A DNA stretch of 51,668 nucleotides from Cyanophyceae cyanobacterium (GTDB lineage Bacteria; Cyanobacteriota; Cyanobacteriia; Cyanobacteriales; JBHJGN01). The position numbers and the translations under genes are program-made. The notes below the pieces were generated by a model, which was not told the origin of the DNA, searched no databases, and was given only the letters and a program-made list of their open reading frames with translations. The stretch is taken from the NCBI GenBank assembly GCA_050331735.1, contig JBHJGN010000028.1:1-51668 (forward strand), given 5' to 3'. Below are positions 14,831-50,000 of the stretch, in pieces. How positions within the stretch are numbered: position 1 is the first letter of the stretch; each line of letters opens with the position of its first letter.

Positions 14831-14981
14831 ATACCAATTAGAAAAAGTAATAGGAGACTCGATGAGTTGGGGGAAAGGGCAAGGGGTCAAGGGGAAAGGG
14901 AAGCACAGCAGCTCTTTGCCCTTGAACCTCCAATGCTTGGTGAGTTTAAGGAACTATCTGACTACTTTCGGTAAATGAGAT
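14831..14981 (+). mobile_element. ~150 bp MITE, copy A
   Basis: ATACCAATTAGAAAAAG...CTATCTGACTACTTTCGGTAAATGAGAT; colinear with copies at 23209, 37797 and 41861; internal GGGGAAA heptamers. Confidence 0.85.
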
Positions 14982-19586: not shown

Positions 19587-19966
19587 CGCTCTCAGCAACT
19601 CAACGTTTTCCGAGCGCTCACGACAAACAACTAATATTGAATCCGTTTATCGCGGTTCTCACTTTAATAAGGTACAGTCTTACATCCCAGTTTTTTGTTG
19701 ATTGTTCGTCTTCGCATACTTCCTTACAATCTGTAAATTATTGATTTTTCTTTCCTTAGATATAGCTGAAGGCGCTTCAACCCTGTAAGCTTTCAGGTAA
19801 TTCTCAGGCTTAAGATGGATGTTTCTCGGTTTCGTACCGAGGAAACTAATAGTTCATACCTGAGTTAATTAGACTACAAACTCCGCCCTTCATTAGCATT
19901 GGGCAAAAAGATTTACAGACGTGTCGTATCCAGTGGGGAATTATCGTGATGGGACTAGGTATCCCG

Positions 19967-22900
19967 ATGTTTAACTTGATGCAGCTAGTGGCGCAAATTC
20001 CGCTCGAATCGCCGGTCGATAATGCCGAAGATGCTGCTTTGGTATTTAGCGGACCGCAATTTTTCACAGCTTTGGTTGCTGGAGTGTTGCTCGCTTTCGC
20101 TTTTCAGCTTTTGCTGACAAACTTGGGAGTGGCGGCTGGCATTTCTATGCTGGGAGGGTCAGACGATTCTCAGTCTGATGACAACAGTGGCGGGAGCGTC
20201 GGAGGAACCATTCGCAAAATCGGTTTTGCCCTCGGACTCGCCACGTTAATCACTGTAACGATCTCCTTGTTTTTTGCCAGCCTCTTTGCCGTCAAGCTGA
20301 GCTTATTTGTCTCAGCTTTTTCTGGTGCCATTGTTGGTTTAGTCATTTGGGCTACCTATTTCTCAGTGCTGGTCTTCGTCAGCTCCTCTACTGTCGGGTC
20401 GCTCGTTGGCTCGATTGTCAACACGGCTACCTCCGGTTTCCAGGCCGTGTTAGGAACAGCAACAGCCGCTATTGGCGGTCAAGCCGTCAACAAACAAGTA
20501 GTCGCCACTGCTGAAGCCGCTGCCTCGGCTGTGCGCCGCGAACTCGGAAGCGCCATCGATCCCATTACAATCCGAGAAAACGTTGAAGACTACATCAACG
20601 CTCTCAAAGCACCGACCGTCGATCGCGCATCGATTCGAGCCGATTTCGAGCGACTGCTGGAAGACCCTAGCGTTCAAGAGATTGCTGGCGCACAGGGAAT
20701 CGAGAGAGTCAATCGACAAACATTCGTCGAGCTGCTCAACAATCGCACCGACTTATCCAAACGAGACATTGAAAGCATTGCCGACGAACTAGAAGTGGTG
20801 TGGAATCGGAAAGTACGCAGCTCTCAGCGCCGAGATTCCCTAGGAGAACTGGTAGACTACGTGAAATCGGCCACGCCGGATCAGTTAGTCGGGGCCAACT
20901 TTTCAGATAAGCTGGACAGCCTCATCGAAGAAATGCGTCTCAGCCGCGAGGCCCAACAGAGTCACAGCCAAACTCAAACTCAGCAGGGGCAAGGCCAAGG
21001 ACCAGTCAATCAGGCGATCGCTATGGGCATGAACAGCCTCATGGGCATGGTGATGGGACGAGCTGACTTAACAGACATTAGCGCCGAACAGATTGTTAAT
21101 CAGCTCAAAAAGCTCGGAGCGCAGGCCGGAATTTCCACCGAAAAGCTCCCGAAGCAGTTGCCTGGAACTGCTACTAACCCCATTCGCACCGATGTAGAAA
21201 ACTATATCCTCAACGCCTACCCCTGGCAGCTCAAGTCAGAAAACTTAGAGCGAGAGTTTAGAGATTTGCTCTACGACCCCGATGCCGATCCCGGAACGGT
21301 CGGCGATGCCCTCGAGCAAATCAGCCGTTCGGATCTCGCCGACTGGCTTCAGCAGAAAGGACTCTATACTCAATCAGAAATTAGAGAGCTATCGCTCAAG
21401 CTCGATGCGGTTCGGCGAGAGGTACTGGTTACTGCTCGCGCGGCTCAGGAGCGCGAGAAATCCCTGGCTTTGCAGCGAGATGTGGAGCAGTACCTGCTGA
21501 CAACTCCCAAAGAAAACCTGACTCCTGAACAGATTCAGAGCGAGTTCAAACCACTCTTAAGAGATCCCGATACCGATTACGAACACCTCAGTAATCGATT
21601 AGCTCAATTTGACCGCCCCACCTTCGAGCGCCTGCTGGCGCAGCGTGGAGACCTAGAGCTCGTAGAGGTATCGGCGATGACCAACGAGCTAGAAATCGCC
21701 CGCGATCGCGCGCTGAGCGAGTCCCAGGAGGTCACAGAGTCGACAAAAGCCCAGGCTGAAGCGCTGTGGTCGCGAGCCAAATCTTTCTTTCAGGAAACCA
21801 GTGCTCAAGACCTCACCGACAAGAACGTTCAGCACGAGCTAGACCTGCTGTTTAAAGATGCGGGCTCGACCGGAGCCGCTTCACTGCGTACGCGCGCGGC
21901 TCGCTTTAATCGCGACGACCTGGTGCAGTTGCTCACCCAAAGAGGCGACCTCAGCCAAGAGCAGGCCAATCGAATTGCCGACCAAACCGAAAGAACCTGG
22001 ACTCAGATTCGCTATGCGCCTCAGCAGCTCACCGGGAAAGCGCAGGAGCAGTACAGCAAAGCAGAGTCGGCGATCGCCGATTATCTCCGCTCCACCGGGA
22101 AAGCCGAACTTAACCCCGAAGGCATCAAACGAGACCTGCAAAAGCTGTTTGCCGATCCGCAAACGGGAGCTCAGGCAATCCGCAACCGCCTCGCCTCGAT
22201 GGATCGCGATACTCTGGTGCAGTTGCTCAATCAGCGGGACGACCTCAGTGAGGAGCAGATCAATCAAACCATCGATAGCGTTCAGGATACGCTCCGCAGC
22301 ATCGCCAGAACCCCGCGTCGGTTGGCCAGACGCGCTCAGGGTCAGGTGCAGAGTTTCCAAGACTCCATCGCCGACTACCTGCGCTCTACCGGGAAAGACG
22401 AACTCGACCCCGAAGGCATCACGCGCGACGTTCAGCTACTGCTCAACGATCCTCGCGCTGGCCGGGAAAGCCTACAGGAGCGGCTGTCTCAGTTCGACCG
22501 CACGACTCTGGTCGCGCTGCTGTCTCAGCGCGAAGATATTGCCGAAGAAGATGTCAACCAAATTATCGACCAAATTCTGTCGGTTCGCGACCAGGTAGGC
22601 CTACAGGTGCGCACGATTCAGCTCAAGATTGAGGCAGCCATCGAAAACCTCCTCGACCGCATTCGCCAGTACCTAAACGGCTTAGAGCGCCCAGAACTCA
22701 ACTACGAAGGCATTACCACAGACCTGCGTACCCTGCTAGACGACCCGCAGGCCGGCTTTGAGGCGCTGCGCGATCGCCTGTCGCAGTTCGACCGCGATAC
22801 CCTCGTCGCCATTATGAGCTCCCGCGAGGATATGTCTGAAGCCGATGCCAACGGCTTAATCGACCGCATCGAACAGACCCGCAACCGCTTGCTACAGCGG

Positions 22901-23077
22901 GCAGAGCGGATTCAGCAAGAAACCCTGCGTCGCCTTGAAGAAACTAAAGAACAGGCTCGCCGACAGGCAGAAGAAACCCGCAAGGCAGCGGCAGCAGCCT
23001 CGTGGTGGCTGTTTGCGACCGCTCTGATTTCGGCGCTTGCTTCTGCTGGAGCGGGTGCTCTCGCCGTCCTCGACTAA
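19967..23077 (+). CDS. Large membrane-anchored protein with ~100-aa helical repeats
   Basis: About three N-terminal TM helices and one C-terminal TM; repeated DYLxxTxxxELxPEGIxRDLxxLxxDP..RLSQFDRxTLVxLLxQRxD units; start uncertain (19946-19967). Confidence 0.85.
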   Translation: MFNLMQLVAQIPLESPVDNAEDAALVFSGPQFFTALVAGVLLAFAFQLLLTNLGVAAGISMLGGSDDSQSDDNSGGSVGGTIRKIGFALGLATLITVTISLFFASLFAVKLSLFVSAFSGAIVGLVIWATYFSVLVFVSSSTVGSLVGSIVNTATSGFQAVLGTATAAIGGQAVNKQVVATAEAAASAVRRELGSAIDPITIRENVEDYINALKAPTVDRASIRADFERLLEDPSVQEIAGAQGIERVNRQTFVELLNNRTDLSKRDIESIADELEVVWNRKVRSSQRRDSLGELVDYVKSATPDQLVGANFSDKLDSLIEEMRLSREAQQSHSQTQTQQGQGQGPVNQAIAMGMNSLMGMVMGRADLTDISAEQIVNQLKKLGAQAGISTEKLPKQLPGTATNPIRTDVENYILNAYPWQLKSENLEREFRDLLYDPDADPGTVGDALEQISRSDLADWLQQKGLYTQSEIRELSLKLDAVRREVLVTARAAQEREKSLALQRDVEQYLLTTPKENLTPEQIQSEFKPLLRDPDTDYEHLSNRLAQFDRPTFERLLAQRGDLELVEVSAMTNELEIARDRALSESQEVTESTKAQAEALWSRAKSFFQETSAQDLTDKNVQHELDLLFKDAGSTGAASLRTRAARFNRDDLVQLLTQRGDLSQEQANRIADQTERTWTQIRYAPQQLTGKAQEQYSKAESAIADYLRSTGKAELNPEGIKRDLQKLFADPQTGAQAIRNRLASMDRDTLVQLLNQRDDLSEEQINQTIDSVQDTLRSIARTPRRLARRAQGQVQSFQDSIADYLRSTGKDELDPEGITRDVQLLLNDPRAGRESLQERLSQFDRTTLVALLSQREDIAEEDVNQIIDQILSVRDQVGLQVRTIQLKIEAAIENLLDRIRQYLNGLERPELNYEGITTDLRTLLDDPQAGFEALRDRLSQFDRDTLVAIMSSREDMSEADANGLIDRIEQTRNRLLQRAERIQQETLRRLEETKEQARRQAEETRKAAAAASWWLFATALISALASAGAGALAVLD

Positions 23078-23208: not shown

Positions 23209-23355
23209 GTACCATTTACCGAAAGTAGTCAGATAGTTCCCAAACCAACCAACAATTGGAGGTTCAAGGGCAAAGAGCTGCTGTGCTTCCCTTTCCCCTT
23301 TCCCCCTTCCCCTTTCCCCCAACTCATCAAGTCTCCTATTACTTCTAATCGGTAT
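23209..23355 (-). mobile_element. ~150 bp MITE, copy B
   Basis: Reverse complement of copy A (ATACCGATTAGAAG...ACTACTTTCGGTAAATGGTAC). Confidence 0.85.
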
Positions 23356-37754: not shown

Positions 37755-38330
37755 ATGGCAATTACAACTGGGCGGCTGACCCTTGACGACTACCTCATAC
37801 CATTTACCGAAAGTAGTGAGATAGTTCTCCTAGCTAACAAAGAGTTGGCTCTTAAAAGGGAAAGGCTTGCTGTGTTTACCTTTCCCCCTGACCTTTTCCC
37901 CAACGGAATTAAGCGATTAGGGCGAGACTGGGCGACAAAACAGATGGTTATCGGCATCCAATCCCCACGAGGCGATCGCTGGGATACTGTTCGCATTCCA
38001 GACGTGGTTGTTTTACCCCTTGATCAGTGGCGCGAGCTTCAAAATCGGGAGGCGGTTATTCGCCTTGGTGAGCCACCACCACTGCTTATCGTAGAAGTTG
38101 TAAGCGAATCAACCAGAGGAGTTGACTATCGAGCTAAGCGAGCTGAGTATAGTGTTCTTGACATTCCTGAGTACTGGATTATCGATTCGCTTTCTGAGCA
38201 GGTCACTCTCCTCACGCTGACTGAAGGATGGTACGATGCTCAGGAGTTTACAGGAAGTGACGTTGTGCGATCACCGACGTTTCCTGACCTTGCTCAATCT
38301 GTAGAAGAAATCCTGAAGGGGGAGTTGTGA
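37755..38330 (+). CDS. Uma2 (DUF820) PD-(D/E)xK endonuclease-family protein, chimeric with a MITE and possibly inactive
   Basis: RIPDVVV, LIVEVVSES, DYRAKRAEY, IPEYWIID; codons 15-50 are MITE sequence replacing the usual YELxxGxL..MPP..H segment. Confidence 0.8.
   Translation: MAITTGRLTLDDYLIPFTESSEIVLLANKELALKRERLAVFTFPPDLFPNGIKRLGRDWATKQMVIGIQSPRGDRWDTVRIPDVVVLPLDQWRELQNREAVIRLGEPPPLLIVEVVSESTRGVDYRAKRAEYSVLDIPEYWIIDSLSEQVTLLTLTEGWYDAQEFTGSDVVRSPTFPDLAQSVEEILKGEL
37797..37904 (-). mobile_element. MITE copy D, truncated, inside the Uma2 ORF
   Basis: ataccatttaccgaaagtagtgagatagtt...ttttccccaac aligns with copy B; the last ~40 bp are missing. Confidence 0.85.
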
Positions 38331-38494: not shown

Positions 38495-40579
38495 TTACAA
38501 CTTAATTTCTACTTCTAAAAAAGCTCGTTCTATTGCCTGGGCTAAATTTAGTTTCTGTTGTTGAGCGTATAGATCAGCCGCACTACGATATGCTAGCAAT
38601 ATCTCGCGAAAGTTTTCAATCTTTCCATTTGAAGTTTTGATATTGAGAAGAACCCAACCTAAGTTATGTTGTGCCTGCGCGTAGTGCGACTTTAATTGAA
38701 CAGCCTTTTCTAAACAAAGACGTGCTTGAGTCCAATATCCACTTCTTCCCCATAAAGTACCCAAGCGAAATAGAACAAGAGGATTTGGGGAGAATTTTTG
38801 AGCGTGTTCTTCATAAGCTTGGATGGCTCCTTGAGGGTTATTTAAGCGTTCTTGAGTCACGCCTCGATTAATTAATAGCCAGCTTGGAACTTGTGCTTGA
38901 GAATTTGCTTGTTCAAAACTAGTTTGGGCATCAGACCATAATCCTTGTTTAGCCTGCTTCCAGCCTTTAAATCCCCAACCCCAAGCACTATTTGGTAGTT
39001 GGGTAATAAATTCTTCAATCCGTCTGTCTACATCCCTGGCTTGCTTGGTAACAACCGCTTTATCTAGGGCAATAATGAGAAGCGGATAAATCCATTGCTG
39101 TAGCGCTTGAGAATTTCTAGACTGAGCCGCTTTTGACTTAAAGACTGCTTGAGTAGCTGCCCGAATAGCGGGTTTCCATTGCTGTTGATTGGCTGCTATC
39201 CAGGCTTGGATTCCTAAAGCAAAAGTGCAACGGCTGTCTATTTGAAGCGATTTCGCTACCGCCACCTCAGCCTGTTGCCAATTGCCGGATTTTCCGAGTG
39301 CCCAAGCTAAATTTGTCTGTATCCAAGCTTCCTGGGAAGAAAGACTCGCTGCTTGCTGTAGCTGACTAACGGCAACTAACCACTGGGCTTGGCGGCAGCT
39401 AATCAGCCCCAACACTCCATAGCTTCTGCCGTCGTTGGGTTTGAGCTGAATCGCTTTTTGAGCCGCCGCTTCTGCTTGAGATTCATCGAGGTGAATTTGC
39501 ACTAATGCTAGTTCGACGGCGGCTTCACCATTACTGGGTTCATAAGAGAGACATTTCTCGTAAGCTTGAACGGCTTCCGCTAGCCGAAGCTGCTTAGCTA
39601 GCTCTTGGGCGCGTTTTTGGATTGGAGAAATTAACTTTCCTTCGAGAGCGTTAATTAATTCATCAGCAGATTGAAACCGATCCTCGACCCGCATTTGGAG
39701 TCCGGTTAAGACAACCTTTTCAATTAGCTCAGATAGATCGGAGCGTAATTGTCTTGGAGGAATTAGGGAGTCTGAATGGACTCTGACAACGGGATCGGCA
39801 GGCAGTTCTCCGGTTAATACTTCATACATCGACGCGCACAGAGCATAAATATCGGTTGCTGCCCAGCGCTTACTTTTGTAGCTGTATTGTTCAAGAGGAG
39901 CATACCCTTTTGTCAAAGTGACGCTCAATTCGCGGGTTTGACCAGCAATAAATTCTTTCGTCGCCCCAAAATCAATCAATACAGCTCGGTCTTGACCGTC
40001 GATAATAATATTTTCTGGTTTGAGATCTCGATGTAAAAAGTTATTTCCATGAACAACTTTGAGAGCTTCTGCCACTTGAATAAAGTAACGTTTGACTCGC
40101 TCTTCGGAAACTCTCCCTTCTCTTTTAAAAATGCTATATAAAGTTTCGCCAGCGACAAATTCCATGACGATGTAAGCGGTATCGTTTTCGTCAAACCAGT
40201 CGTAGACTTTGACGATGTGGGGATGTCTGCATTGGTGTAGATAAGAAGCTTCCAGCTTAAACTTAGTGAGCTGTTGCTGTCGTTCCTTGGGGGCGATCGC
40301 ATGAGGCCAGGTAACGCTAGTTCCCTGCCTCACTGCTTTTTCTGGCCACAGTTCTTTGAGGGCAACTGTTCCTGCATTGGTCAAATCAGTTCCTTGATAG
40401 GTAATGCCGAACCCACCGTCGCCAATGACTTTTTCAATGCGATAGTGTCCTTGCTTGAGGAGCGTTCCTGTTGGCAAATGGTACGTTGAACTACTGAGTT
40501 CCAAAGGAGTGCCGCAGCTAATACAGGATTGGCTGTTGTCAGAATTAGCAGTGAGGCAACTAGGGCAATCGAGTGTCAT
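38495..40579 (-). CDS. Zn-ribbon + Ser/Thr protein kinase + TPR protein
   Basis: CPSC/CISC; IGDGGFGITY, VALKE, HRDLKPEN, IDFG, GYAPLE; C-terminal TPR repeats; no TM. Confidence 0.93.
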   Translation of the reverse strand: MTLDCPSCLTANSDNSQSCISCGTPLELSSSTYHLPTGTLLKQGHYRIEKVIGDGGFGITYQGTDLTNAGTVALKELWPEKAVRQGTSVTWPHAIAPKERQQQLTKFKLEASYLHQCRHPHIVKVYDWFDENDTAYIVMEFVAGETLYSIFKREGRVSEERVKRYFIQVAEALKVVHGNNFLHRDLKPENIIIDGQDRAVLIDFGATKEFIAGQTRELSVTLTKGYAPLEQYSYKSKRWAATDIYALCASMYEVLTGELPADPVVRVHSDSLIPPRQLRSDLSELIEKVVLTGLQMRVEDRFQSADELINALEGKLISPIQKRAQELAKQLRLAEAVQAYEKCLSYEPSNGEAAVELALVQIHLDESQAEAAAQKAIQLKPNDGRSYGVLGLISCRQAQWLVAVSQLQQAASLSSQEAWIQTNLAWALGKSGNWQQAEVAVAKSLQIDSRCTFALGIQAWIAANQQQWKPAIRAATQAVFKSKAAQSRNSQALQQWIYPLLIIALDKAVVTKQARDVDRRIEEFITQLPNSAWGWGFKGWKQAKQGLWSDAQTSFEQANSQAQVPSWLLINRGVTQERLNNPQGAIQAYEEHAQKFSPNPLVLFRLGTLWGRSGYWTQARLCLEKAVQLKSHYAQAQHNLGWVLLNIKTSNGKIENFREILLAYRSAADLYAQQQKLNLAQAIERAFLEVEIKL

Positions 40580-40582
40580 TTT

Positions 40583-41857
40583 CTAATAAGTTTCAAAGCG
40601 AAAACGAACTTTACCAAAAGCAATTTCATCTTCTGTGTTCAATTTTTGAGGAAGAGTAATTCTCTCAAAACGTGATTGACCAACACACTTAACAAAAATG
40701 CCGTTAGCTGAGCCTGAATCGGCAATTTTCCACTCTCCTGATTCTCTGTAAATTTTGCCGTGTTGACGCGATACAGTTTGAGAACCAGAAAAGTGATTTA
40801 AATCAATATCGACTGAAGCGCCCGGTTCGGCTCGTCCAATAACGTGCTGCGTGTTTTCTAAGATGAATTCTGGACAAGAGCTAACGGATGGAACGGGAAT
40901 AAGTTTAGCAATCTGCTCTCCTCCCGTCAGTGCTTTCAGCAGTTCGTCTGCTGTCTGAAAACGCTCTTGGACGCGCATACTCATACCAGTCCAGATAACT
41001 TGTTCTAGGAGGGGATCGATATGAGGAGCGAGATGGCGAGGAGGAATGAGGGCTTCTGAGGCAAACCTTTCTGTAGCGGGTGCTGGTAGCTTGCCAGTGA
41101 GCGCTTCGTACATGGAGGCACACAGCGCGTAGATGTCTGTAGCAGGCCAGCGCTTGCTTTCATAACTGTATTGTTCCAGAGGAGCATAGCCAGGAGTGAG
41201 CGTGACGCTCATTTTGCGAGTTTGACCAGCAATAAATTCCTTAGTTGAGCCAAAATCGATCAATATAGCTCTATCTTGACCGTCGATAATAATATTTTCT
41301 GGTTTAATATCACGATGAAGTAGATTAACCTGGTGAATGGCTTTGAGCGCTTCAGCCAGTTGAATAAAGTAGCGCTTAACCTGCTGATTCGGCAAAGGAC
41401 TCGCTTTAATCAATTGGGAAAGTGGCTGACCAGTAATGAGCGCCATGACAACGTAGGCGGTGTTGTTGGCTTCAAAGCAGTCGTAAACCCGAACGATACT
41501 GGGGTGATGGCATCGGGAAATGTAGGTCGCTTCGGTAGCTATCTGTTTTAGCTGTAGCTGGCGGTTGTGGGGCGTTACTGTTGGGGGCCAAACAATCGTG
41601 GTTCCTTGGCGAATAGCTTTTTCGGGCCAGCTTTCTTTAACGGCAACGGGGCGAGAGTGAACTACATCAATAGCTTTGTAAGTAATGCCAAAGCCGCCTT
41701 CACCCAGGACTTTTTCAACCTGATATTTCTGTTGTAGAAAGCTACCGGACGGCAACAGGTAGCTGTGCTGATTCGCGTTTAAAGCTACACCACAAGCAAT
41801 ACAGATAGCTGCGTTAACTTGATTCTCTGCCATACAGGTAGGACATTGAATAGACAT
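40583..41857 (-). CDS. Zn-ribbon + Ser/Thr protein kinase + FHA protein
   Basis: True start MSIQCPTC (41857), since the upstream extension is MITE; LGEGGFG, HRDIKPEN, IDFG; FHA motifs IGR, SRQH, SANG. Confidence 0.93.
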   Translation of the reverse strand: MSIQCPTCMAENQVNAAICIACGVALNANQHSYLLPSGSFLQQKYQVEKVLGEGGFGITYKAIDVVHSRPVAVKESWPEKAIRQGTTIVWPPTVTPHNRQLQLKQIATEATYISRCHHPSIVRVYDCFEANNTAYVVMALITGQPLSQLIKASPLPNQQVKRYFIQLAEALKAIHQVNLLHRDIKPENIIIDGQDRAILIDFGSTKEFIAGQTRKMSVTLTPGYAPLEQYSYESKRWPATDIYALCASMYEALTGKLPAPATERFASEALIPPRHLAPHIDPLLEQVIWTGMSMRVQERFQTADELLKALTGGEQIAKLIPVPSVSSCPEFILENTQHVIGRAEPGASVDIDLNHFSGSQTVSRQHGKIYRESGEWKIADSGSANGIFVKCVGQSRFERITLPQKLNTEDEIAFGKVRFRFETY

Positions 41858-41860
41858 TTT

Positions 41861-42010
41861 ATCCCAATTAGAAAAAGGAATGAGAGACTTGCTGAGTTGG
41901 GAAAGAGGGAAAAGGGTAAGGGGGAAAGGGAAGTAAGCAGGTCTTTTTCTTTGAACCTCCAACTCTTTGTTAGTTTGGGGAATGATCTGACTACTTTCGG
42001 CAAATGGTAT
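41861..42010 (+). mobile_element. ~150 bp MITE, copy C, inside the kinase operon
   Basis: ATCCCAATTAGAAAAAG...GACTACTTTCGGCAAATGGTAT; fills the gap between the PP2C stop and the kinase ATG. Confidence 0.85.
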
Positions 42011-43815
42011 TAGTTAGCCTTAATCCGGCACTGTAAAGCGAGAAGAGTAGCATTATCAGCCGCTCCTCGCTTAAGGACTAGCTCAATCGTCCTATCTACA
42101 GAGGATTGCAGATATTGTGGACACGTAAAAATTTCTGCGAGTTCTTCCGGTGAAACGAGATCCCAAACGCCATCCGAACACAGAAGCAACAGATCCTCAT
42201 CTTCTAGGATCATCGATCGGGTTCCAGCGGTACGGCTGAGATCCTGAACGTAGCCACTGCTTAACTGTTGTTTTGAACCAAGAGATTTAATCAGCACACT
42301 CCGCTCTGGATGGTTTAAGCTTTCTTCATCGGTAATTTGACCGCTCGCTACCAACATGGCAACTAGGGTATGATCTTCACTTAACTGGCGGATTTCTCCC
42401 TTGCGTACTAGGTAGATGCGGCTGTCTCCGACATGGGCGATCGCTAATTGATTGGCACTTGCCATGACCACGCTCAAAGTCGTTCCGCCGTCGCGCACCG
42501 CTGTGGCGGTCGCCTGATTTGCTTGCTCAAAGAGCGATATTAGCCAGTCTGCTCGTTGTTCCGACTTCAAACCTGGAGGAATTGGTTCACTCAGAACCGT
42601 TTGAATCGCTAGTTTACTCGCCACTTCTCCTTGAGACATGCCCCCCATACCATCAGCGACAGCGGCTAATAGATACGTATCGGTATTGCTGAGCTGCTGT
42701 TGGACACCGTAGCTATCTTCGTTTTGCAGGCGATCGGTTGATAGTCCGACAGTAGAACGACTAGCGATGTTCCAACGAACTTCAGGAGTGCGAAACGAGT
42801 TCCGGGAACTGACTAAAAGGGTAAGTAACTGAGCAAGGGAAAAGCGTTCTTCGCAGATAGGAGAGAGGCTAATTTTCAGGAGTTGATGGACGTGAGGAAT
42901 GGGCTGAATTTCGATATTTAGTGGCTGATCTGACGGTGGGGGCTGCTGATGAATCGCTTGGTAGAGTAGCGCTCCAACGGTATAGGTACTCATGGTTTCA
43001 TCGAAAGGATAACCAGAAGCGAGTTCGGGAGCGCAATAATCGCCTATCAGTCCTAAGCTTGGCTTTTCTCCCACAGGGTAAGCAGTGGTGAGATCGAAAA
43101 ACTTTAGGGGTGTCCCAATTTGAATCAGTTGAGGCAGCAAATTGGCAAAGCACCACCCTCGCTGAAAGACATAGGAAAAGCCTTGACAAATTTGTACAGC
43201 CAAAGATAAGCACTTTTCTGGGGAATTATCCCCTGTTAGCCAAGTTTCCAAAGTGGAACCCTCTGGAAAATCCGTTAAGAGAATTAGCTTTTGCTGAGAT
43301 TCTGGACCAATTTCTTTTTCTGGATAGTATTCTTCTTCTAAATACTCTGATGTTGGTTCAATTTGTTCAGGAGGTTCTATCTGTTGTTCGCTAGACGTTT
43401 CGGCAGCCAACGATATATCTGGGCTGTTTTCATCGACATCTTCAGCGATCGCCTCAAGCTGCTCTCCCTGCTCCTTTTCTATCCATTCCGTTTCTTGGTT
43501 AGTGATTTGACAGGAAAGCTTGAGCGCCACAGACTCTTCAACAGTATGAGCCAGCAAGGGGGCAACCATGCCGTAATCGCCCAGCACTTCCCTAAGCTGT
43601 AGTTCCCGACTCAAGCCACCGTCGATAGCCCCAACTCGCAGCAAGCCTAATTGCTCAGTGTTAAAATTGTCGTCTGAATTAATTTTTACTTTAAAGGAGT
43701 GAACATCTTCCGAGAGTAAGCCCAGGTATGCCAATACTTCTACTCGATAGTTTTTAAGGTAGAAGCAGTGGTTTTCCTGAATGACTAACTCTTGATTGGG
43801 TAAGGCTAAAATCAT
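42010..43815 (-). CDS. Degenerate kinase-like domain + PP2C (PPM) phosphatase
   Basis: NEDSY, VADGMGG, GGTT, HVGDSR, DHT, LCSDG, DNAT; N-terminal half has YCAPE and YTVGALLY but lacks HRD and DFG; acidic linker. Confidence 0.9.
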   Translation of the reverse strand: MILALPNQELVIQENHCFYLKNYRVEVLAYLGLLSEDVHSFKVKINSDDNFNTEQLGLLRVGAIDGGLSRELQLREVLGDYGMVAPLLAHTVEESVALKLSCQITNQETEWIEKEQGEQLEAIAEDVDENSPDISLAAETSSEQQIEPPEQIEPTSEYLEEEYYPEKEIGPESQQKLILLTDFPEGSTLETWLTGDNSPEKCLSLAVQICQGFSYVFQRGWCFANLLPQLIQIGTPLKFFDLTTAYPVGEKPSLGLIGDYCAPELASGYPFDETMSTYTVGALLYQAIHQQPPPSDQPLNIEIQPIPHVHQLLKISLSPICEERFSLAQLLTLLVSSRNSFRTPEVRWNIASRSTVGLSTDRLQNEDSYGVQQQLSNTDTYLLAAVADGMGGMSQGEVASKLAIQTVLSEPIPPGLKSEQRADWLISLFEQANQATATAVRDGGTTLSVVMASANQLAIAHVGDSRIYLVRKGEIRQLSEDHTLVAMLVASGQITDEESLNHPERSVLIKSLGSKQQLSSGYVQDLSRTAGTRSMILEDEDLLLLCSDGVWDLVSPEELAEIFTCPQYLQSSVDRTIELVLKRGAADNATLLALQCRIKAN

Positions 43816-43839
43816 GGAAAAAGCTATCTGAGTAAGGGC

Positions 43840-44388
43840 TTAGGCACTTTGGAAGAGAAAGCGAACTTTAGCGATCGCCACTTCATCTCCCGAATGAATC
43901 GTTTCTGGGGTAGTAATTCTGGCTCCAAAACGGCTTTGACTGACAGGTTTAATAAACACGCCATTCGTAGAGCCAAGGTCTTTAATTTTCCACGCTCCTG
44001 CTTCTTGATAGATCTCAGCATGGTTGCGTGAGATGGTTTCGCTCCCTGGAAATTCTTCTAGATCGATATCGACGGGTCCGGTATCTGGATCGAAGATGCC
44101 CACAATGGCATAACTATCTAGACAAAATTCAGCAATGGGAGCGTTTGGCTGCTTGGCGACTAACTTAGCAGGTACAGCAGAAGTTTGGGGAATTGTTGGC
44201 TCAGGAACGGGGTTTGAAGTTAGCGGAGGCGGGGACTGTGGCTCCAAAGAAGGTGCTTCTGGCACTGGTGAGGATTCAATCGGAGCGGATGCTGATGCGG
44301 TTGGTGATAGTTCTGCGCCGCAAGCATCGCAGAATTCCGAACCATCGGGGTTTTGATCGTAACCACAGCTTGTACAAAGGATTGACAT
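43840..44388 (-). CDS. Zn-ribbon + Pro/Ser-rich linker + FHA domain protein
   Basis: CTSC/CDAC; SRNH and GSTNG FHA motifs; start moved to ATG 44388 (AAGGAAG upstream). Confidence 0.9.
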   Translation of the reverse strand: MSILCTSCGYDQNPDGSEFCDACGAELSPTASASAPIESSPVPEAPSLEPQSPPPLTSNPVPEPTIPQTSAVPAKLVAKQPNAPIAEFCLDSYAIVGIFDPDTGPVDIDLEEFPGSETISRNHAEIYQEAGAWKIKDLGSTNGVFIKPVSQSRFGARITTPETIHSGDEVAIAKVRFLFQSA

Positions 44389-44448
44389 AGTTTTGACTTC
44401 CTTCAATAGACAATAAAGTATGTTGAGTAATCAAGCTAAGAGCTAATT

Positions 44449-46374
44449 TTACGTACCTGAAAGCGCTCGTATTTCTGCTTCTGAAGGCAGGTCGTCGTTA
44501 ATATCGCTGCCCATTTTGACCGTTTTGCCTTTGGAACCCATTTTGACGGTTTTACGAGTTCCGGCTGAAATTTTGCGAGTGAGGCGTAGCTCGTCAATTC
44601 CTTCATTGAGAGATTCTTCCATCGCTTTATTCCCAATCTTGACCGTAAGGCGACGAGCAGTTTCCATTAGTTTTTCTGCTTCTTGAGGATTCTGTTCTGC
44701 TACCTGTGTAGCGTTGTTCACAAGCTGAGAAATGTTGCGCTGCTGAACGTACCCCATCACCTCTTGGTCTACTTGAGCAGCACCATTTTGTCCGGCAACA
44801 AACTGCACCACTACGTTTTGAGGAGGAAGTTCGCCGCGTCGGTTTTGTCCGGGAACATCGTAGGTTAAGCCAAGCTGGGCAACGCGTACGCGAGAGGTGA
44901 CGCGACTGTCTACGTTGAATTCTAAGATAAACACCGTTTCATCATTGCCAACAGCAGTACCAATAGGATAGGGTTGAGTCGTCAATGGAAATTCGGCTTG
45001 GTCGGGATAGACGCGAGTAACGCGCTCTAGCTCAACTCCTTTCACGGACTTAACGCTGAGGGCGAGGTTGTTAATTACTTCTTGCTGAGCTTGACTAAAT
45101 TCGCCAAACAGGGTTCGAGGCAGATCGTTGATAGAAACTTGCGTCCCCGTTGCCTGTCCGGGAACGACATGAAAGAGATGACCGCCAGTGGTATCGCTAA
45201 GATGAATGAGTAAATCTTCGTTATATTCCCCAACGCCAAGGGCGGTCATGGGAATCCCAGCGCTGGCAAACTGCTGAGCGAGATCTCGACACTCAAAATC
45301 ATCAAAGGTTTCGCCATCGGTAAAAATGAGAGCGCGGCGACTGGTCATAGTTTGGTTGGAGAGTAAATCCATCGCTTGATTAAGACCTAGCCCTAGGCGA
45401 GTCCCGCCAGAAAAGTCATGGAGATTATCAATTGCCTTTTGGAGCTGATTGATTTCGGTTGCTGGTGTGAGTCCAATGAGAGTAGAAGCTTGGTCGTCGA
45501 ATTGAATCAGAGCAATGCGATCTGTTTGCTCTAGTTTTCCTGACCAAATTAGCTCTTGCAGGGATTTAATGACCAGAGCAATTTTTGTTTCTCCGCCAGT
45601 GACTGCCATGTAATTTTGACCGTCTACCTGAAAGGTTTGTCCGGTTGGCTGTGAGTCTCCGGTGACGACTTCATACATCGAGCCGCTTGTATCGATTAGA
45701 AAAGCGAAGGTTGTCGGTGGGCGAGTATTGGCAATCTCTCTTGTCGGTCGCAGCTTCAGCATAATAAACAATTTCTGAGCGGCGGTATCGGCAGGCAGAA
45801 ATTCACGATGGGAGGTAAGAGTAACGTTTAGCATGTTGATATCAGTAGTGGAGTCTGCGTTTTGATGGCAATTTGACGAGGCATCGTGTGGGTTTGTAGC
45901 TGTGTCTGTTGCTTGGGGAAGATCTTGATGAGCTTGTTCTGTAAAGCGCAGGCGGAGCAATTCTTGCTTTTGGGTTTCGACGAGATCGGCTTGTGGAGCG
46001 GAGATAGCATGGAGAAGACGAGAAATGCTGTCTAAGGCGCGGTAGGTGTCATCGGTTGAGAAGTTACCGCTGTGCGCCCACTGGTTGCGAGCCGTGCGTA
46101 GTTCGCTCACTAAACTGCGTTCTGCGTAGCCTAAGCTTTGTTTGAAGACGTTATGCCATTTATTGCAGATTAAGATCAGCAAAGCTGAAATATCTTCTTT
46201 AAGAATTTGAGCAGTACTGCGTCGCAGGGTGCGGTCTTCCGGTACGCTAGCCGCCGCAGCGTCTAGCCAGTTGTCTTGATAAGCAGAACGCATTTCTTGT
46301 TCCACAAAGGGATATAAGCCTTCTCTGAGAAGGTCTAAGGCTCTACCCACTCGTTCTTGGTTTGTCATTGCCAT
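44449..46374 (-). CDS. Swt1-like HEPN domain fused to a vWA domain protein
   Basis: aa 1-~150 MTNQERVGRALDLL..ELRTARNQWAH..DTYRALD (Rx4H); linker; from M181 a vWA with MIDAS DTSGS, GGT, TDGE. Confidence 0.88.
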   Translation of the reverse strand: MAMTNQERVGRALDLLREGLYPFVEQEMRSAYQDNWLDAAAASVPEDRTLRRSTAQILKEDISALLILICNKWHNVFKQSLGYAERSLVSELRTARNQWAHSGNFSTDDTYRALDSISRLLHAISAPQADLVETQKQELLRLRFTEQAHQDLPQATDTATNPHDASSNCHQNADSTTDINMLNVTLTSHREFLPADTAAQKLFIMLKLRPTREIANTRPPTTFAFLIDTSGSMYEVVTGDSQPTGQTFQVDGQNYMAVTGGETKIALVIKSLQELIWSGKLEQTDRIALIQFDDQASTLIGLTPATEINQLQKAIDNLHDFSGGTRLGLGLNQAMDLLSNQTMTSRRALIFTDGETFDDFECRDLAQQFASAGIPMTALGVGEYNEDLLIHLSDTTGGHLFHVVPGQATGTQVSINDLPRTLFGEFSQAQQEVINNLALSVKSVKGVELERVTRVYPDQAEFPLTTQPYPIGTAVGNDETVFILEFNVDSRVTSRVRVAQLGLTYDVPGQNRRGELPPQNVVVQFVAGQNGAAQVDQEVMGYVQQRNISQLVNNATQVAEQNPQEAEKLMETARRLTVKIGNKAMEESLNEGIDELRLTRKISAGTRKTVKMGSKGKTVKMGSDINDDLPSEAEIRALSGT

Positions 46375-46484: not shown

Positions 46485-47318
46485 GTGAGAACTGATACGA
46501 TCTTTTTTCGTCTGTTTCAATCTTTCCCGGAAATTTTCTTTGAACTGCTCGATGCTCCGGTACAGCCATAGGCTTATCAGTTTGCCTCGGTAGAAGTAAA
46601 ACAACTAGCTTTCAGAATCGATGGCGTGTTCCTTCCGGCTGCTGATGACCCCGAACAACCAATCTACTTTACCGAAGTGCAGTTTCAGCCGGATGCTCAG
46701 TTTTACTCGCGCTTTTTTAGCGAAATCTTTCTCTATCTTGCTCAAACCGATTTAACCAATAACTGGCGAGGGGCCATTATTTTTCCCAGTCGTCGTGTTG
46801 AGATTGGTAATTCTGAGCGCTACAGTGAGTTGCTTGCTTCTACACGAGTGACCAGGATTTATCTGGATGAGCTAGGAGCGAGTGCGGATGAGTCCGTTGG
46901 CATGGCAACAGTTCAGTTAATAGTGACTGAAGAAGAAACGGCTATAGAACGGGGCAGGTCTTTAATCGATAGAATTAGAAGTGAAAGCGAAGATGAGCAG
47001 CAAGCTAGAGAACTTTTAGAGTTAATCAAGACCATCCTAATTTACAAGCTACCCGAAACCAGCCGGAGGAAGATAGAAGCCATGTTTAGTTTGAGTGATT
47101 TGAAGCAAACTAAGGTTTATCAAGAAGCATTAGAGGAAGGGAGACAAGCAGGCAAAGAAGAAGGGAGACAAGCAGGCAAAGAAGAAGGCAAGCTGGAAGG
47201 CAAATTAGAATCTGTACCATTGCTGCTGTCTTTAGGCGCAACGGTAGAACAAATAGCCGAGGCGCTGAATCTGGATGTAGAACGAGTGCGACAGGTAGCG
47301 CAGCAGCAAAGTGAGTAG
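46485..47318 (+). pseudogene. Rpn-family (DUF2887) nuclease gene with a premature stop
   Basis: GTG 46485 reads VRTDTIFFRLFQSFPEIFFELL..QP*AYQFASVEVKQLAFRIDGVF, in frame with the 46626 ORF; TAG at 46569-46571; EVQFQ motif; EEG repeats. Confidence 0.85.
47136..47183 (+). repeat. Perfect 24-bp tandem duplication (EGRQAGKE x2)
   Basis: gaagggagacaagcaggcaaagaa twice; typical variable C-terminal repeat of Rpn proteins. Confidence 0.9.
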
Positions 47319-47351: not shown

Positions 47352-47735
47352 CTACCCAAAGACTAAGGGTGGTAATGCGCCACCTTGCGGTTCAATGCCT
47401 GTTAAGTCAGGCTTAACTGGTTCGGGGAGCTGCTGATTGCCATCCTCTTTAAGTTGTTTAATATTGGCTTCAATCAGCAGAGGTAAGTCTAAAGTGACTG
47501 TGGTGGTGCGATAGCCTTCACCAATATCTTCCAGCCAAGCTGTTATTAAGCGGTTGAGATTCGCTTCGCTAATCTGGCAAGCACTTTGACTTTGCAAGGA
47601 TTGCTGGACTTTCTGCCGAATTTCTGGGGTAAATATCTGTTTTGGTTGATTCTCCTGACTGGTAGATAAATTGAAAGCATAACTGTAGCGCTCTTCGGTA
47701 TCTTTCAGTTGTAGGAACAGGGTGTAAGTAGCCAT
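47352..47735 (-). CDS. Hypothetical protein (127 aa)
   Basis: Clean ATG ORF with protein-like composition, same strand as the kinase operon. Confidence 0.7.
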   Translation of the reverse strand: MATYTLFLQLKDTEERYSYAFNLSTSQENQPKQIFTPEIRQKVQQSLQSQSACQISEANLNRLITAWLEDIGEGYRTTTVTLDLPLLIEANIKQLKEDGNQQLPEPVKPDLTGIEPQGGALPPLVFG

Positions 47736-47865: not shown

Positions 47866-48744
47866 CTAGGGAAAACTTACTTCTGCCCAAATGCGAGTCT
47901 TTTCTACATCAGAGTTTGTATCGACAAAAGCTTCTATTCGATTAATCTCTACCTGCTGACCTGTTTTAAGAGGATTACTTGCTTTTTCAGCTAGTTTAAA
48001 ATTGGGAGGTTGTGGCACGTTACGACGCAAGTTTACACCTGTTTTGAGGGTTACTACTTCTCCTGGTACAGGAACAATAGATGGAGTAATTGACACAGGC
48101 TGACTTTTTGTAGGGATTAATGGTTCATTATAAGAAAAAGTACCAGACGTATTATTAACAGCACCTATCCATATCCAACCGATAGCTTCAGACTGAGTTA
48201 CTGCGGTAGAACGATTTAAACTCGTTTTTTCTGGCTGAGGAGAATAAGAATTATTAGAATTAGTATTATGTTGAGCTGCCTGAGATGGTAAATAGTTTGA
48301 CTCAGCAGTAGGCAAGGGCTGAGTATTATTCAAACTCATTTCTATGTCGAAAGTTGTAGAAGCTTTTATAGCAGAAATTTGTATTATATAGCTACCTGTT
48401 TGTGGCAGAATACTGCTTTGTAAAGCTTTGCTTTCTGGAGTGTAAATTAAAACACAAATATCTTTGTTAACTTGATTATCAAGTTTTTGTCTTTTCTGAG
48501 CTTTAAAAGCATACGCTATCGGTTTACTTTTATGCGCTATTCCAGATTCTTGAGTTGGCTGCTCGTTTAGTTCAATCATTTTTACATTTCTGCTGCTTAA
48601 GCTAAAATTTTGCTTTTCAGGGCACTTTTCTTTCTCGGTTGATAAATCTCGTTCTGTAGAGTTAGTCCTTTCGTGCTTTAGATTAGAACAGCTAACGCAA
48701 ACGAGTATCAAAGAAACAAGATAACAAATCTTTAGTTTAAACAT
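47866..48744 (-). CDS. Hypothetical lipoprotein with PPC-like beta domain and C-terminal SH3-like segment
   Basis: LVCVSC lipobox-like; YAFKAQKRQKL..ICVLIYTP..LPQTGSYIIQI; VNLRR..LKTGQQVEI; AT-rich. Confidence 0.7.
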   Translation of the reverse strand: MFKLKICYLVSLILVCVSCSNLKHERTNSTERDLSTEKEKCPEKQNFSLSSRNVKMIELNEQPTQESGIAHKSKPIAYAFKAQKRQKLDNQVNKDICVLIYTPESKALQSSILPQTGSYIIQISAIKASTTFDIEMSLNNTQPLPTAESNYLPSQAAQHNTNSNNSYSPQPEKTSLNRSTAVTQSEAIGWIWIGAVNNTSGTFSYNEPLIPTKSQPVSITPSIVPVPGEVVTLKTGVNLRRNVPQPPNFKLAEKASNPLKTGQQVEINRIEAFVDTNSDVEKTRIWAEVSFP

Positions 48745-48780
48745 TTATTGTATTACGTTTTAGTATTTTGAAAGCAAGCA

Positions 48781-49698
48781 CTAAATGTTTTTATTAATTA
48801 ACCAACTGTCTCTCTCTTTACTCCATACTAGATAAATACGACTTTTATAATCTTCAAACACTGTATTGTTGTTCATGACATACCATAATTCAGCATTGAC
48901 TACAGCAGTAGTGTGAGATTGAGCAATCAACGTTACTTTTCCTATTTTTATTTCTTTGACACTGTTCCACCACTCTTTATATTTAGAATAAGATGGTAGT
49001 TTTCTTTGAAATTTGAAAGAAAGTTTTTCCCAAGTTGGTTTATAATCGCGGTCATTAAGTTTTTTGTAATACTCTACAATAAATTCATCTGCCGCTGGAC
49101 GTTCTTCTATTTCTTTGTAATTTGTTAGACTAGTTGTTGAGGGAACTTGTTCAGAGAAAGATGGAGCTTGAGCATCTTCTATAGCTAAACTAAGTTTAAA
49201 AGTAGTAGAGCCACGAGGAACAGAAACTTGAATTATGTATTTACCATTTTCTGGTAATTCCACGCTGTCAAGCATTTCATTTCTTTGGTTATAAATCCAT
49301 ATACAAAGCTCGTTTTCTGTGTTGCAAGAAAGCTTTTGCTTTTCTTTGCCTTCAAAAATATATCCTAGATCTTTCCCAGATATTATTTGAGCAGATATGG
49401 TAGTACTCTGACTATCAACATTGACTTCTTCTACCTGTGCCGGACTAAGTTCTCCTGGTTTGTCTGAACACTCATCCTTTGCTGTTGCAGGATCTATAAT
49501 CGTTGCTTGTGTAGTATTTGAAAATTTTGAACAACCAATACATTGTAAAACAATAATTCCAAGGAAAAATACTTGTGGGGATTGTACCAGTAGTTTAAAT
49601 TTGGTAAATAACGACAAAGCACTTAAAACGTTTTCTTTAAGCAGTTGAACCGTCATTTTGTTTTTAGATTTTGCTATTTTTATGAAGGCAAATCTCAT
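48781..49698 (-). CDS. Hypothetical exported protein; N-terminal domain paralogous to 47866 ORF, plus NTF2-like C-terminal domain
   Basis: YIFEGKEKQKL..LCIWIY..LPENGKYIIQV; FIVEYYKKLN..W..LS..FQ..Y.EWW; start uncertain. Confidence 0.7.
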   Translation of the reverse strand: MRFAFIKIAKSKNKMTVQLLKENVLSALSLFTKFKLLVQSPQVFFLGIIVLQCIGCSKFSNTTQATIIDPATAKDECSDKPGELSPAQVEEVNVDSQSTTISAQIISGKDLGYIFEGKEKQKLSCNTENELCIWIYNQRNEMLDSVELPENGKYIIQVSVPRGSTTFKLSLAIEDAQAPSFSEQVPSTTSLTNYKEIEERPAADEFIVEYYKKLNDRDYKPTWEKLSFKFQRKLPSYSKYKEWWNSVKEIKIGKVTLIAQSHTTAVVNAELWYVMNNNTVFEDYKSRIYLVWSKERDSWLINKNI

Positions 49699-50000
49699 TT
49701 TTTATAGTTTTCAGTAAATTGAGAAACAGTAGTTGTGTTGCTTTTATAGTTCGGAGATTGTTTTTGTTTAACCAGTGCTCAATGCAACAAGGTTTAGCGA
49801 CAATTACATCGAGATGTTTTAATTTGTCAAGTATTTTTTAAGTAAACTTTAGTTGGCTTCGCTAACTTTCTTGATATACAATAAAGCTGAATAAGAAGAG
49901 GATTTAAAAGCTTTGTTTTAAGGCTTAAAAGCTTCTATCCTCTTCCTCTCATTGTTTTTTACAGTTACCGAAGCTTGAAGATTATCTTAATGATATTAGT

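Follow-up and report, generated by a model that had tools for sequence, protein, structure and literature searches.

A cyanobacterial locus with a putative ArnA/ArnB-type phosphothreonine switch and a HEPN domain fused to its vWA protein

Introduction

The subject of this study is a set of five genes, g1 to g5, at positions 38,495 to 46,374 of a 51,668-nucleotide stretch of DNA from a Cyanophyceae cyanobacterium (contig JBHJGN010000028.1, positions 1 to 51,668, GenBank assembly GCA_050331735.1); the whole stretch is called the window below. The closest described system is the ArnA/ArnB module of Sulfolobus acidocaldarius, a motility-repression module that works with the kinases ArnC and ArnD and the phosphatase PP2A (PMC6509490; PMC12852372). 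ArnAB is an experimentally characterised, phosphorylation-dependent switch that tunes archaellum expression with the nutrient state: once ArnC has phosphorylated ArnB in its C-terminal helical domain, a loose complex made through the zinc finger becomes a tight complex made through the FHA domain (PMC6509490; PMC12852372). T-T-R-R is the ending of the ArnB phosphopeptides given in these reports (PMC6509490; PMC12852372), and the structure 8S05 is that of the ArnAB complex (PMC12852372).

Other described systems share parts with the locus. One is the threonine phosphorylation pathway of type VI secretion, formed by the kinase-vWA protein PpkA, the PP2C phosphatase PppA and Fha1, and its parts list of Hanks kinase, von Willebrand factor A (vWA), PP2C and FHA domains is also that of our five genes. 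However, in PpkA, a protein of kinase-vWA architecture (PMC1262709), the kinase and the vWA form one polypeptide with the vWA on the periplasmic side, and the window showed no type VI secretion genes. In TerY-P modules, a vWA protein, a PP2C and a Ser/Thr kinase form a triad associated with nucleic-acid-targeting defence components. In TerY-P, the kinase ends in a zinc ribbon or, in the form tested for defence, an OB fold (PMC11090510), and anti-phage activity has been reported for such modules (Gao et al., 2020, as cited in PMC11090510). A further group comprises the DO-GTPase/GAP1-N2 systems, a class predicted to act in biological conflicts, whose third theme joins a kinase-zinc ribbon protein, a PP2C and a standalone vWA protein (Kaur et al., 2020, PMC7159879). 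That study calls this theme restricted to actinobacteria, names the main GAP1-N2 phyla without cyanobacteria and describes no HEPN fusion (PMC7159879). Finally, HEPN_Swt1-DUF499 proteins of the Ava_2192 type are parts of restriction-modification-type operons, and the HEPN survey that covers them mentions no vWA fusion (PMC3710099).

On a cyanobacterial vWA/FHA/PP2C cluster, the literature yielded general surveys only, and the source data of PMC7159879 might list cyanobacterial clusters. An earlier note on this DNA, made from its sequence, had proposed the five genes as a defence or stress system and did not recognise the architecture as a named one; indeed, the exact HEPN-vWA architecture was not found in the literature searched. 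No paper there combined Swt1, HEPN and vWA, and the single one that covers HEPN, vWA, FHA, PP2C and kinase is silent on the fusion.

Results and Discussion

Organisation of the five genes

Taken as a whole, the locus is probably a phosphothreonine switch of the ArnA/ArnB type joined to a HEPN effector. Its genes, and the repeat that lies between two of them, are the following:

44449..46374, minus strand, g1, HEPN-vWA protein of 641 aa
43840..44388, minus strand, g2, zinc ribbon-FHA protein of 182 aa counted from M7 (the mechanical open reading frame reaches 44406)
42010..43815, minus strand, g3, pseudokinase-PP2C protein of 601 aa
41858..42009, dispersed repeat of 152 bp resembling a miniature inverted-repeat transposable element (MITE), occupying the whole g3-g4 spacer (blastn)
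40583..41857, minus strand, g4, zinc ribbon-kinase-FHA protein of 424 aa counted from M36 (the mechanical open reading frame reaches 41962)
38495..40579, minus strand, g5, zinc ribbon-kinase-TPR protein of 694 aa

The mechanical open reading frames (ORFs) of g2 and g4 begin at upstream TTG codons. Because homologues align only from M7 and M36, the likely starts are 44388 for g2 and 41857 for g4, and with both corrections the spacers from g1 to g5 measure 60, 24, 152 and 3 bp. These are the gaps that the earlier note had given for five co-oriented genes, all of which are intact and on the minus strand. The gap that it had called MITE-filled is a dispersed repeat, as the 152-bp spacer returned 217 blastn high-scoring segment pairs genome-wide. 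Further copies of this family of about 150 bp lie in the window at 14834-14977, 23210-23335 and 37798-37848; the copies are 80-88% identical to one another, and several are found at contig ends. Transmembrane (TM) segments had been reported as absent, and in all five proteins the mean Kyte-Doolittle hydropathy stays below 1.6 in every stretch of 19 residues. Every domain named from the sequence was recovered as well, the kinase part of g3 by a sub-threshold Pfam match with the catalytic motifs checked; the three CxxC...CxxC ribbons are N-terminal in g2, g4 and g5.

Relationship of g1 and g2 to ArnB and ArnA

Among PDB sequences, the best matches of g2 were ArnA 5a8i_A (E 4.5e-8) and 8s05_C, and ArnB 8s05_A (E 0.0035) was the only match of g1. 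Foldseek placed 4FX5, 8S05 A/B and 5A8J at ranks 1-3 and 7 for g1, with target-normalised template modelling scores of 0.55-0.61 over about 430 columns and an identity of only about 14-17% in the fold alignments. The g2 protein has the N-terminal four-Cys zinc ribbon and the C-terminal FHA domain of an ArnA-type protein. The AlphaFold2 model and the Foldseek result give g1 the three parts of an ArnB-type protein, which are a vWA with its metal ion-dependent adhesion site (MIDAS), a beta-sandwich and a C-terminal helical bundle. In the model, a helical HEPN and a disordered linker are followed by the vWA, the beta-sandwich, the helical bundle and a tail, in agreement with the order of vWA, beta-sandwich and helical bundle given for ArnB (PMC6509490). 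Judging from sequence and, for g1, from predicted fold, g1 and g2 are homologous to ArnB and ArnA.

The vWA of g1 covers residues 225-403 (window 45166-45702, Pfam E 6.7e-17). An alignment of 13 sequences shows no change at its MIDAS residues D228, S230, S232 and D353, while the linker at about residues 136-180 is variable. Four threonines of the C-terminal tail, T599, T606, T609 and T618, are equally invariant in these 13 sequences and lie in T-[RK]-K or T-V-K motifs. This Thr-rich, basic tail holds T-R-K twice and T-V-K twice in its invariant part, and we infer a resemblance to the ends of the ArnB phosphopeptides.

The comparison with ArnA/ArnB thus extends to adjacent genes for a zinc-finger-FHA protein and a vWA/beta-sandwich/helical-bundle protein with an intact MIDAS, to the presence of Hanks-type kinases and to a C-terminal region rich in Thr followed by basic residues. 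There are also clear differences. The described module is archaeal, whereas our locus is bacterial; the phosphatase here is a PP2C fused to a pseudokinase instead of PP2A; and the kinases carry zinc ribbons of their own together with an FHA or a TPR domain. Moreover, the relatives of our module are embedded in a cluster of GTPase and membrane-vWA genes, and the N-terminal HEPN domain of g1 has no counterpart in ArnB.

Reader, phosphatase and kinase proteins

In g2, Pfam found a zinc ribbon (Zn_Ribbon_1) and an FHA domain (E 4.4e-11), joined by a Pro-rich linker, and the SRxH and NG motifs of the FHA domain are conserved in 32 aligned sequences. The N-terminal Pkinase match of g3 is weak (residues 172-313, 27.9 bits, under the 31.7 cut-off) and resembles a kinase C-lobe; because the HRD and DFG motifs are missing among the variants listed in a 28-sequence alignment, we consider this part a pseudokinase. 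The PP2C domain of g3 (Pfam E 1.6e-15) keeps its DGMGG, GDSR, DG and DN motifs, and g3 also matched the NCBIfam model Stp1_PP2C (E 3.5e-52, under cut-off) and the PDB sequences of PstP, Stp1, tPphA, PppA (6jkv) and the PknB C-lobe. Both g4 and g5 combine a zinc ribbon with a Pkinase domain (E 3.2e-39 and 9.1e-41, respectively), followed by FHA in g4 and TPR in g5 (Pfam). The catalytic Lys ([AI]xKE), HRD and DFG are all kept in the two kinases. In the g5 family (27 sequences), the commonest variants listed all keep the catalytic motifs, and one member of the g4 set (n=6) reads HRG and EFG instead. From these motifs, the g4 and g5 kinases as well as the g3 PP2C appear to be active.

The HEPN domain of g1 and its origin

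HEPN_Swt1 (PF18731) matched residues 11-125 of g1 over the full profile, positions 1-115 (window 46000-46344, Pfam E 4.8e-41). The residues R96 and H101 pointed out in the earlier note do form an Rx4H motif, R96-N-Q-W-A-H101, which is intact in g1 and kept in 7/7 fused homologues, whose HEPN regions are 63-78% identical to that of g1. With the profile match, an Rx4-6H motif and a helical region in the model, g1 has the features of a Swt1-like HEPN.

The note had also treated HEPN as a core part of the system, and this did not hold up, as the domain is present in only one of 32 related loci. Among the best 120 vWA homologues listed, HEPN and VWA are combined in only 6 clusters (643-657 aa), and the others are proteins of roughly 410-470 aa without HEPN. 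In 60 related genomes, we found no HEPN-vWA fusion, and the vWA trunk alone occurs in nine of them, matching g1 residues ~167-641. A relative, P0001, is 86% identical and keeps the same fusion. Longer fused vWA-trunk proteins (at least 808 aa) were not found at E<=1e-30, which is weak evidence. The Met at which the unfused vWA protein starts is M181 in g1 (codon at window 45834); 7/7 HEPN-vWA fusions retain it, and g1 was called in the window's own annotation as the 461-aa form that starts there. Long and short isoforms of g1 might both be made.

Cyanobacterial HEPN_Swt1-DUF499 proteins, which are about 1100 aa long, share 56-68% identity at their N-termini with the HEPN region of g1. When 38 HEPN domains were placed in a tree, g1 nested among the N-terminal HEPN domains of these AAA+ ATPases: the eight fused domains group together (support 91/66, recovered in 92% of bootstrap trees), sister to the Myxosarcina HEPN-DUF499 protein P0122 (100/96). 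These data are consistent with a single capture of the HEPN domain within Pleurocapsales from a HEPN-DUF499 restriction-type ATPase. Unlike in that family, the partner in g1 is an ArnB-like vWA trunk and not a DUF499 ATPase, and the window contains no restriction-modification genes. In the vWA tree, the window groups with loci L007 and L008 (98/95); since L008 is without HEPN, a later loss or a more complex history has to be assumed.

A larger cluster in related cyanobacteria

We surveyed species-representative genomes and obtained 32 cyanobacterial loci with the vWA trunk at 60-78% identity. The five genes had been taken for a free-standing system, and this neighbourhood survey of the vWA family showed otherwise: in the 32 loci, the order vWA, zinc ribbon-FHA, pseudokinase-PP2C, optional kinase-FHA and kinase-TPR is the conserved 3' end of a cluster of 13-16 genes. 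The zinc ribbon-FHA gene (g2 type) directly follows the vWA gene in 31/31 loci with at least 0.8 kb of downstream sequence. Where at least 6.5 kb was available, the pseudokinase-PP2C gene (g3 type) was found in 22/23 loci and the kinase-TPR gene (g5 type) in all 23, and the kinase-FHA gene (g4 type) was present in only seven of the 23 and is thus an optional member. Genes 3' of the kinase-TPR gene are not conserved among loci. Nearly all loci have a long co-oriented gene series upstream of the vWA gene, composed of these families:

fam7, optional small GTPase-like gene
fam6, two paralogues with Pfam DO-GTPase1/2 scores of 26-33 bits (cut-off 27)
fam2, protein of about 700-790 aa without a Pfam family
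fam4, four-TM protein
fam3, vWA between TM segments
fam0, 0-5 copies with a common N-terminal part and a C-terminal ARC6-like IMS, VanY or beta-lactamase-like domain
fam5, multi-TM vWA protein
fam1, protein of 129 aa present in 31/32 loci, its gene lying directly 5' of the vWA gene

In the 25 loci with at least 9 kb of upstream sequence, fam3 lies within the flank of 24, fam4 of 23 and fam2 of 20. No match at E<=1 was obtained between fam2 of the relatives and the Pfam GAP1 models; its ESM-Atlas neighbours include GAP1-N2 and GAP1-M clusters (scores 0.76-0.81), which are to be taken as leads only. For fam4 of the relatives, there was no MotA/ExbB match in Pfam. In relatives (L009:6840-7931 and L001:7755-9536), the fam4 proteins have four TM segments and a C-terminal region that by eye resembles FHA, and in the fam5 proteins the vWA is accompanied by 4-7 additional TM segments. 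Several of the vWA domains in the complete cluster are therefore likely to be periplasmic. A C-terminal tail, IEPxxGxLPPLxF, is nearly invariant in 30 aligned fam1 sequences, and its acidic residue could be a MIDAS ligand. At L007, the other HEPN-bearing locus, a TniQ-like gene abuts the cluster end (L007:17927-19867, minus strand; PADLOC TniQ_IB, E 2.3e-35).

The module is therefore the 3' end, and a constant one, of a cluster that faces the membrane and envelope and includes DO-GTPase-like and putative GAP1-like genes. As in the DO-GTPase/GAP1 systems, the clusters of the relatives open with two or three DO-GTPase-like paralogues followed by fam2, a protein of about 740 aa that has GAP1-N2 and GAP1-M in its nearest named ESM-Atlas clusters; membrane vWA proteins and extracytoplasmic peptidoglycan-type domains come next, with the kinase, PP2C and vWA genes last. 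However, the scores of the GTPases are marginal.

The vWA trunk was found in 18/401 sampled genomes of the phylum (E<=1e-60), that is, in 13/156 genera, and its presence varies within genera (4/9, 1/5 and 1/3). The vWA tree largely follows taxonomy, with the exceptions of the pair of Scytonema NUACC26 and Desmonostoc, placed near Spirulina, and of Stigonema outside the main Nostocales clade. The pattern is that of a strongly conserved, frequently lost accessory cluster with a patchy distribution.

State of the cluster in this genome and its surroundings

Upstream of g1, the window contains the following genes:

46626..47318, plus strand, truncated DUF2887 gene between fam1 and g1 (Pfam profile positions 47-200 of 200)
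47352..47735, minus strand, fam1, 127 aa, without a Pfam or PADLOC match (assigned by clustering)
47866..48744, minus strand, fam0 copy 1, 292 aa, hydrophobic N-terminus at residues 1-22 (blastp clustering, tblastn)
48781..49698, minus strand, fam0 copy 2, 305 aa, hydrophobic segment at residues 36-56 (blastp clustering, tblastn)

Both fam0 proteins, which have no Pfam match, are predicted to be exported proteins or lipoproteins. Because its Pfam match starts at profile position 47, the DUF2887 gene is N-terminally truncated; it is an interruption and not a part of the system. At locus L007, fam1 and the HEPN-vWA gene are about 110 bp apart with no DUF2887 gene between them, and fam2 is still present just upstream. 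A low-GC segment at window 48001-50000 (0.33-0.34, vs. about 0.47 around it) spans both fam0 genes.

In contrast to the relatives, the genome itself (5.57 Mb, 99.98% complete) lacks cluster-type GTPase and GAP1-like genes: tblastn queries of fam2, fam3, fam4, fam5 and fam6 from three Pleurocapsales-type loci gave no match at E<=1e-6 anywhere in it. Matches to PF19993 elsewhere in the genome look generic, and the same search was positive in 5/14 control genomes. Hence, the genome keeps the phospho-module, fam1 and fam0 (three upstream genes) and has lost the GTPase half.

The rest of the window encodes transport, metabolism and repair functions. A Uma2-family gene (putative restriction-endonuclease-like) lies directly downstream of g5 (37755-38330, plus strand) and matches the PADLOC candidate family PDC-S03 (E 5.5e-52). 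An ORF of 1043 aa (19946-23077, plus strand) has no Pfam match at E<=1e-5 and coincides with the highest-GC stretch of the window (up to 0.586).

Proposed mechanism

By analogy with ArnAB, the tail and the preceding helical region of g1 would be substrates of the g4 and g5 kinases, and the TPR of g5 is a putative input domain. The FHA domain of g2, and possibly that of g4, would then clamp onto the phosphothreonines of g1, and the PP2C of g3 would erase the phosphorylation and reset the state, its pseudokinase perhaps serving as a docking module. The phosphorylation-dependent assembly state of g1 might in turn gate the HEPN RNase, leading to RNA cleavage under stress or against invaders. The writer, reader and eraser logic put forward in the earlier note has an experimental precedent in ArnAB, to which g2 and g1 are homologous. 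That the clamp gates the HEPN RNase directly, so that the locus would be a kinase-controlled effector of abortive infection or dormancy with a TPR-sensed input, is a tentative extension of the switch-plus-effector description and is possible rather than likely. A role in defence as such is plausible.

Several observations weigh against these proposals. The confidence of the g1 model is moderate, with a mean pLDDT (predicted local distance difference test) of 63, 63-85 in the vWA blocks and 51-76 in the HEPN blocks. In the g2 FHA domain, the canonical Arg of the GR motif is Ile, and the position varies among I, R, K and V across the family; g2 may therefore bind phosphothreonine less strongly or in an atypical way. 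Across cyanobacterial orders (32 loci), identity in the vWA part amounts to 60-78%, and this conservation, with a tree that largely follows taxonomy, is unusual for arms-race genes. With the GTPase half missing, a DUF2887 fragment in place and a MITE inserted, this copy could be decaying.

An association with a defence island, the lack of which the earlier note had named as a refutation, was not observed. In PADLOC, which the note had suggested as a check, system models matched none of g1, g2, g3 or the upstream cluster genes tested. For g1, the only match was a spurious one of 25 residues (C3a64, E 1.5e-4), and PADLOC v2 may not include TerY-P models; g2 gave a negligible short PD-T4-6 ribbon stretch. 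Only generic kinase models (PD-T4-6, mad6, MkoA) were matched by g3, g4 and g5, none of them in the PP2C part of g3. There was no match for 14 upstream-cluster proteins (L001, L009) or for fam0, fam1 and DUF2887 of the window. The neighbours in the window are mostly housekeeping genes, and only 8/82 ORFs downstream of the cluster in relatives matched PADLOC (E<=1e-8), mostly through generic domains, for instance those of AAA ATPases, a cyclase, TniQ and part of a helicase.

Alternative explanations

The alternative that survives best, although we regard it as rather unlikely, is a housekeeping or developmental signalling module that regulates the envelope, peptidoglycan or differentiation, in which HEPN would be an RNA-binding or processing output and not a suicide RNase. 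The same conservation across orders, the fixed gene order and the vWA tree, which largely follows taxonomy, speak for it, as do the ARC6-like IMS, VanY and beta-lactamase-like domains of the cluster partners in relatives and the SH3_3 and YkuD genes that adjoin the fam0 genes in the window. The ArnAB precedent is likewise regulatory, and no PADLOC system was matched. A housekeeping role is harder to reconcile with the patchy presence in the phylum, within genera and among the related genomes (9/60), or with the variable copy number of fam0 and its swapped C-terminal domains. Furthermore, the donor of the HEPN domain is a restriction-associated HEPN-DUF499 family (PMC3710099), and the DO-GTPase/GAP1 class has been predicted to consist of conflict systems (PMC7159879).

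The earlier note had linked the locus to TerY-P, and a self-contained, five-gene anti-phage system of this kind, with the vWA or the TPR sensing infection and unleashing the HEPN RNase, would agree with the co-occurrence of vWA, PP2C and kinase, with the active-looking HEPN and with the reported activity of such modules (Gao et al., 2020, via PMC11090510). The link stands for the triad, which is encoded together here too, and fails for the kinases, whose ribbons are N-terminal and whose C-termini are FHA (g4) or TPR (g5) in place of the defining C-terminal ribbon or OB fold. FHA readers and a pseudokinase are additional differences. With PADLOC matches to generic kinase models only, HEPN absent from 31/32 related loci and the module belonging to a larger cluster in relatives, this explanation is improbable. 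Least convincing of all is a decaying remnant whose five genes became non-functional after the loss of GTPase and GAP1 genes and the insertion of mobile DNA: homologues of fam2, 3, 4, 5 and 6 are missing, a truncated DUF2887 gene separates fam1 from g1 and a MITE separates g3 from g4, but g1 to g5, fam1 and both fam0 ORFs are intact, every catalytic and binding motif is conserved and P0001 keeps the same fused gene, which makes decay very improbable.

Significance

What is new here is the fusion of a HEPN domain onto an ArnAB-like switch within a DO-GTPase-type cluster. ArnA and ArnB have so far been archaeal; their bacterial homologues described here are coupled to Hanks kinases and a PP2C and are conserved in many orders of cyanobacteria. 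The DO-GTPase theme that includes a kinase, a PP2C and a vWA is extended to cyanobacteria as well. The output of the module is otherwise obscure, and the HEPN fusion puts a recognisable enzymatic output on the switch; R96- and H101-dependent toxicity or RNase activity would be an easy experimental read-out. If the phosphothreonine clamp does gate the RNase, it would provide the first functional handle on a widespread and unstudied cyanobacterial cluster of DO-GTPase-like and ArnAB-like genes.

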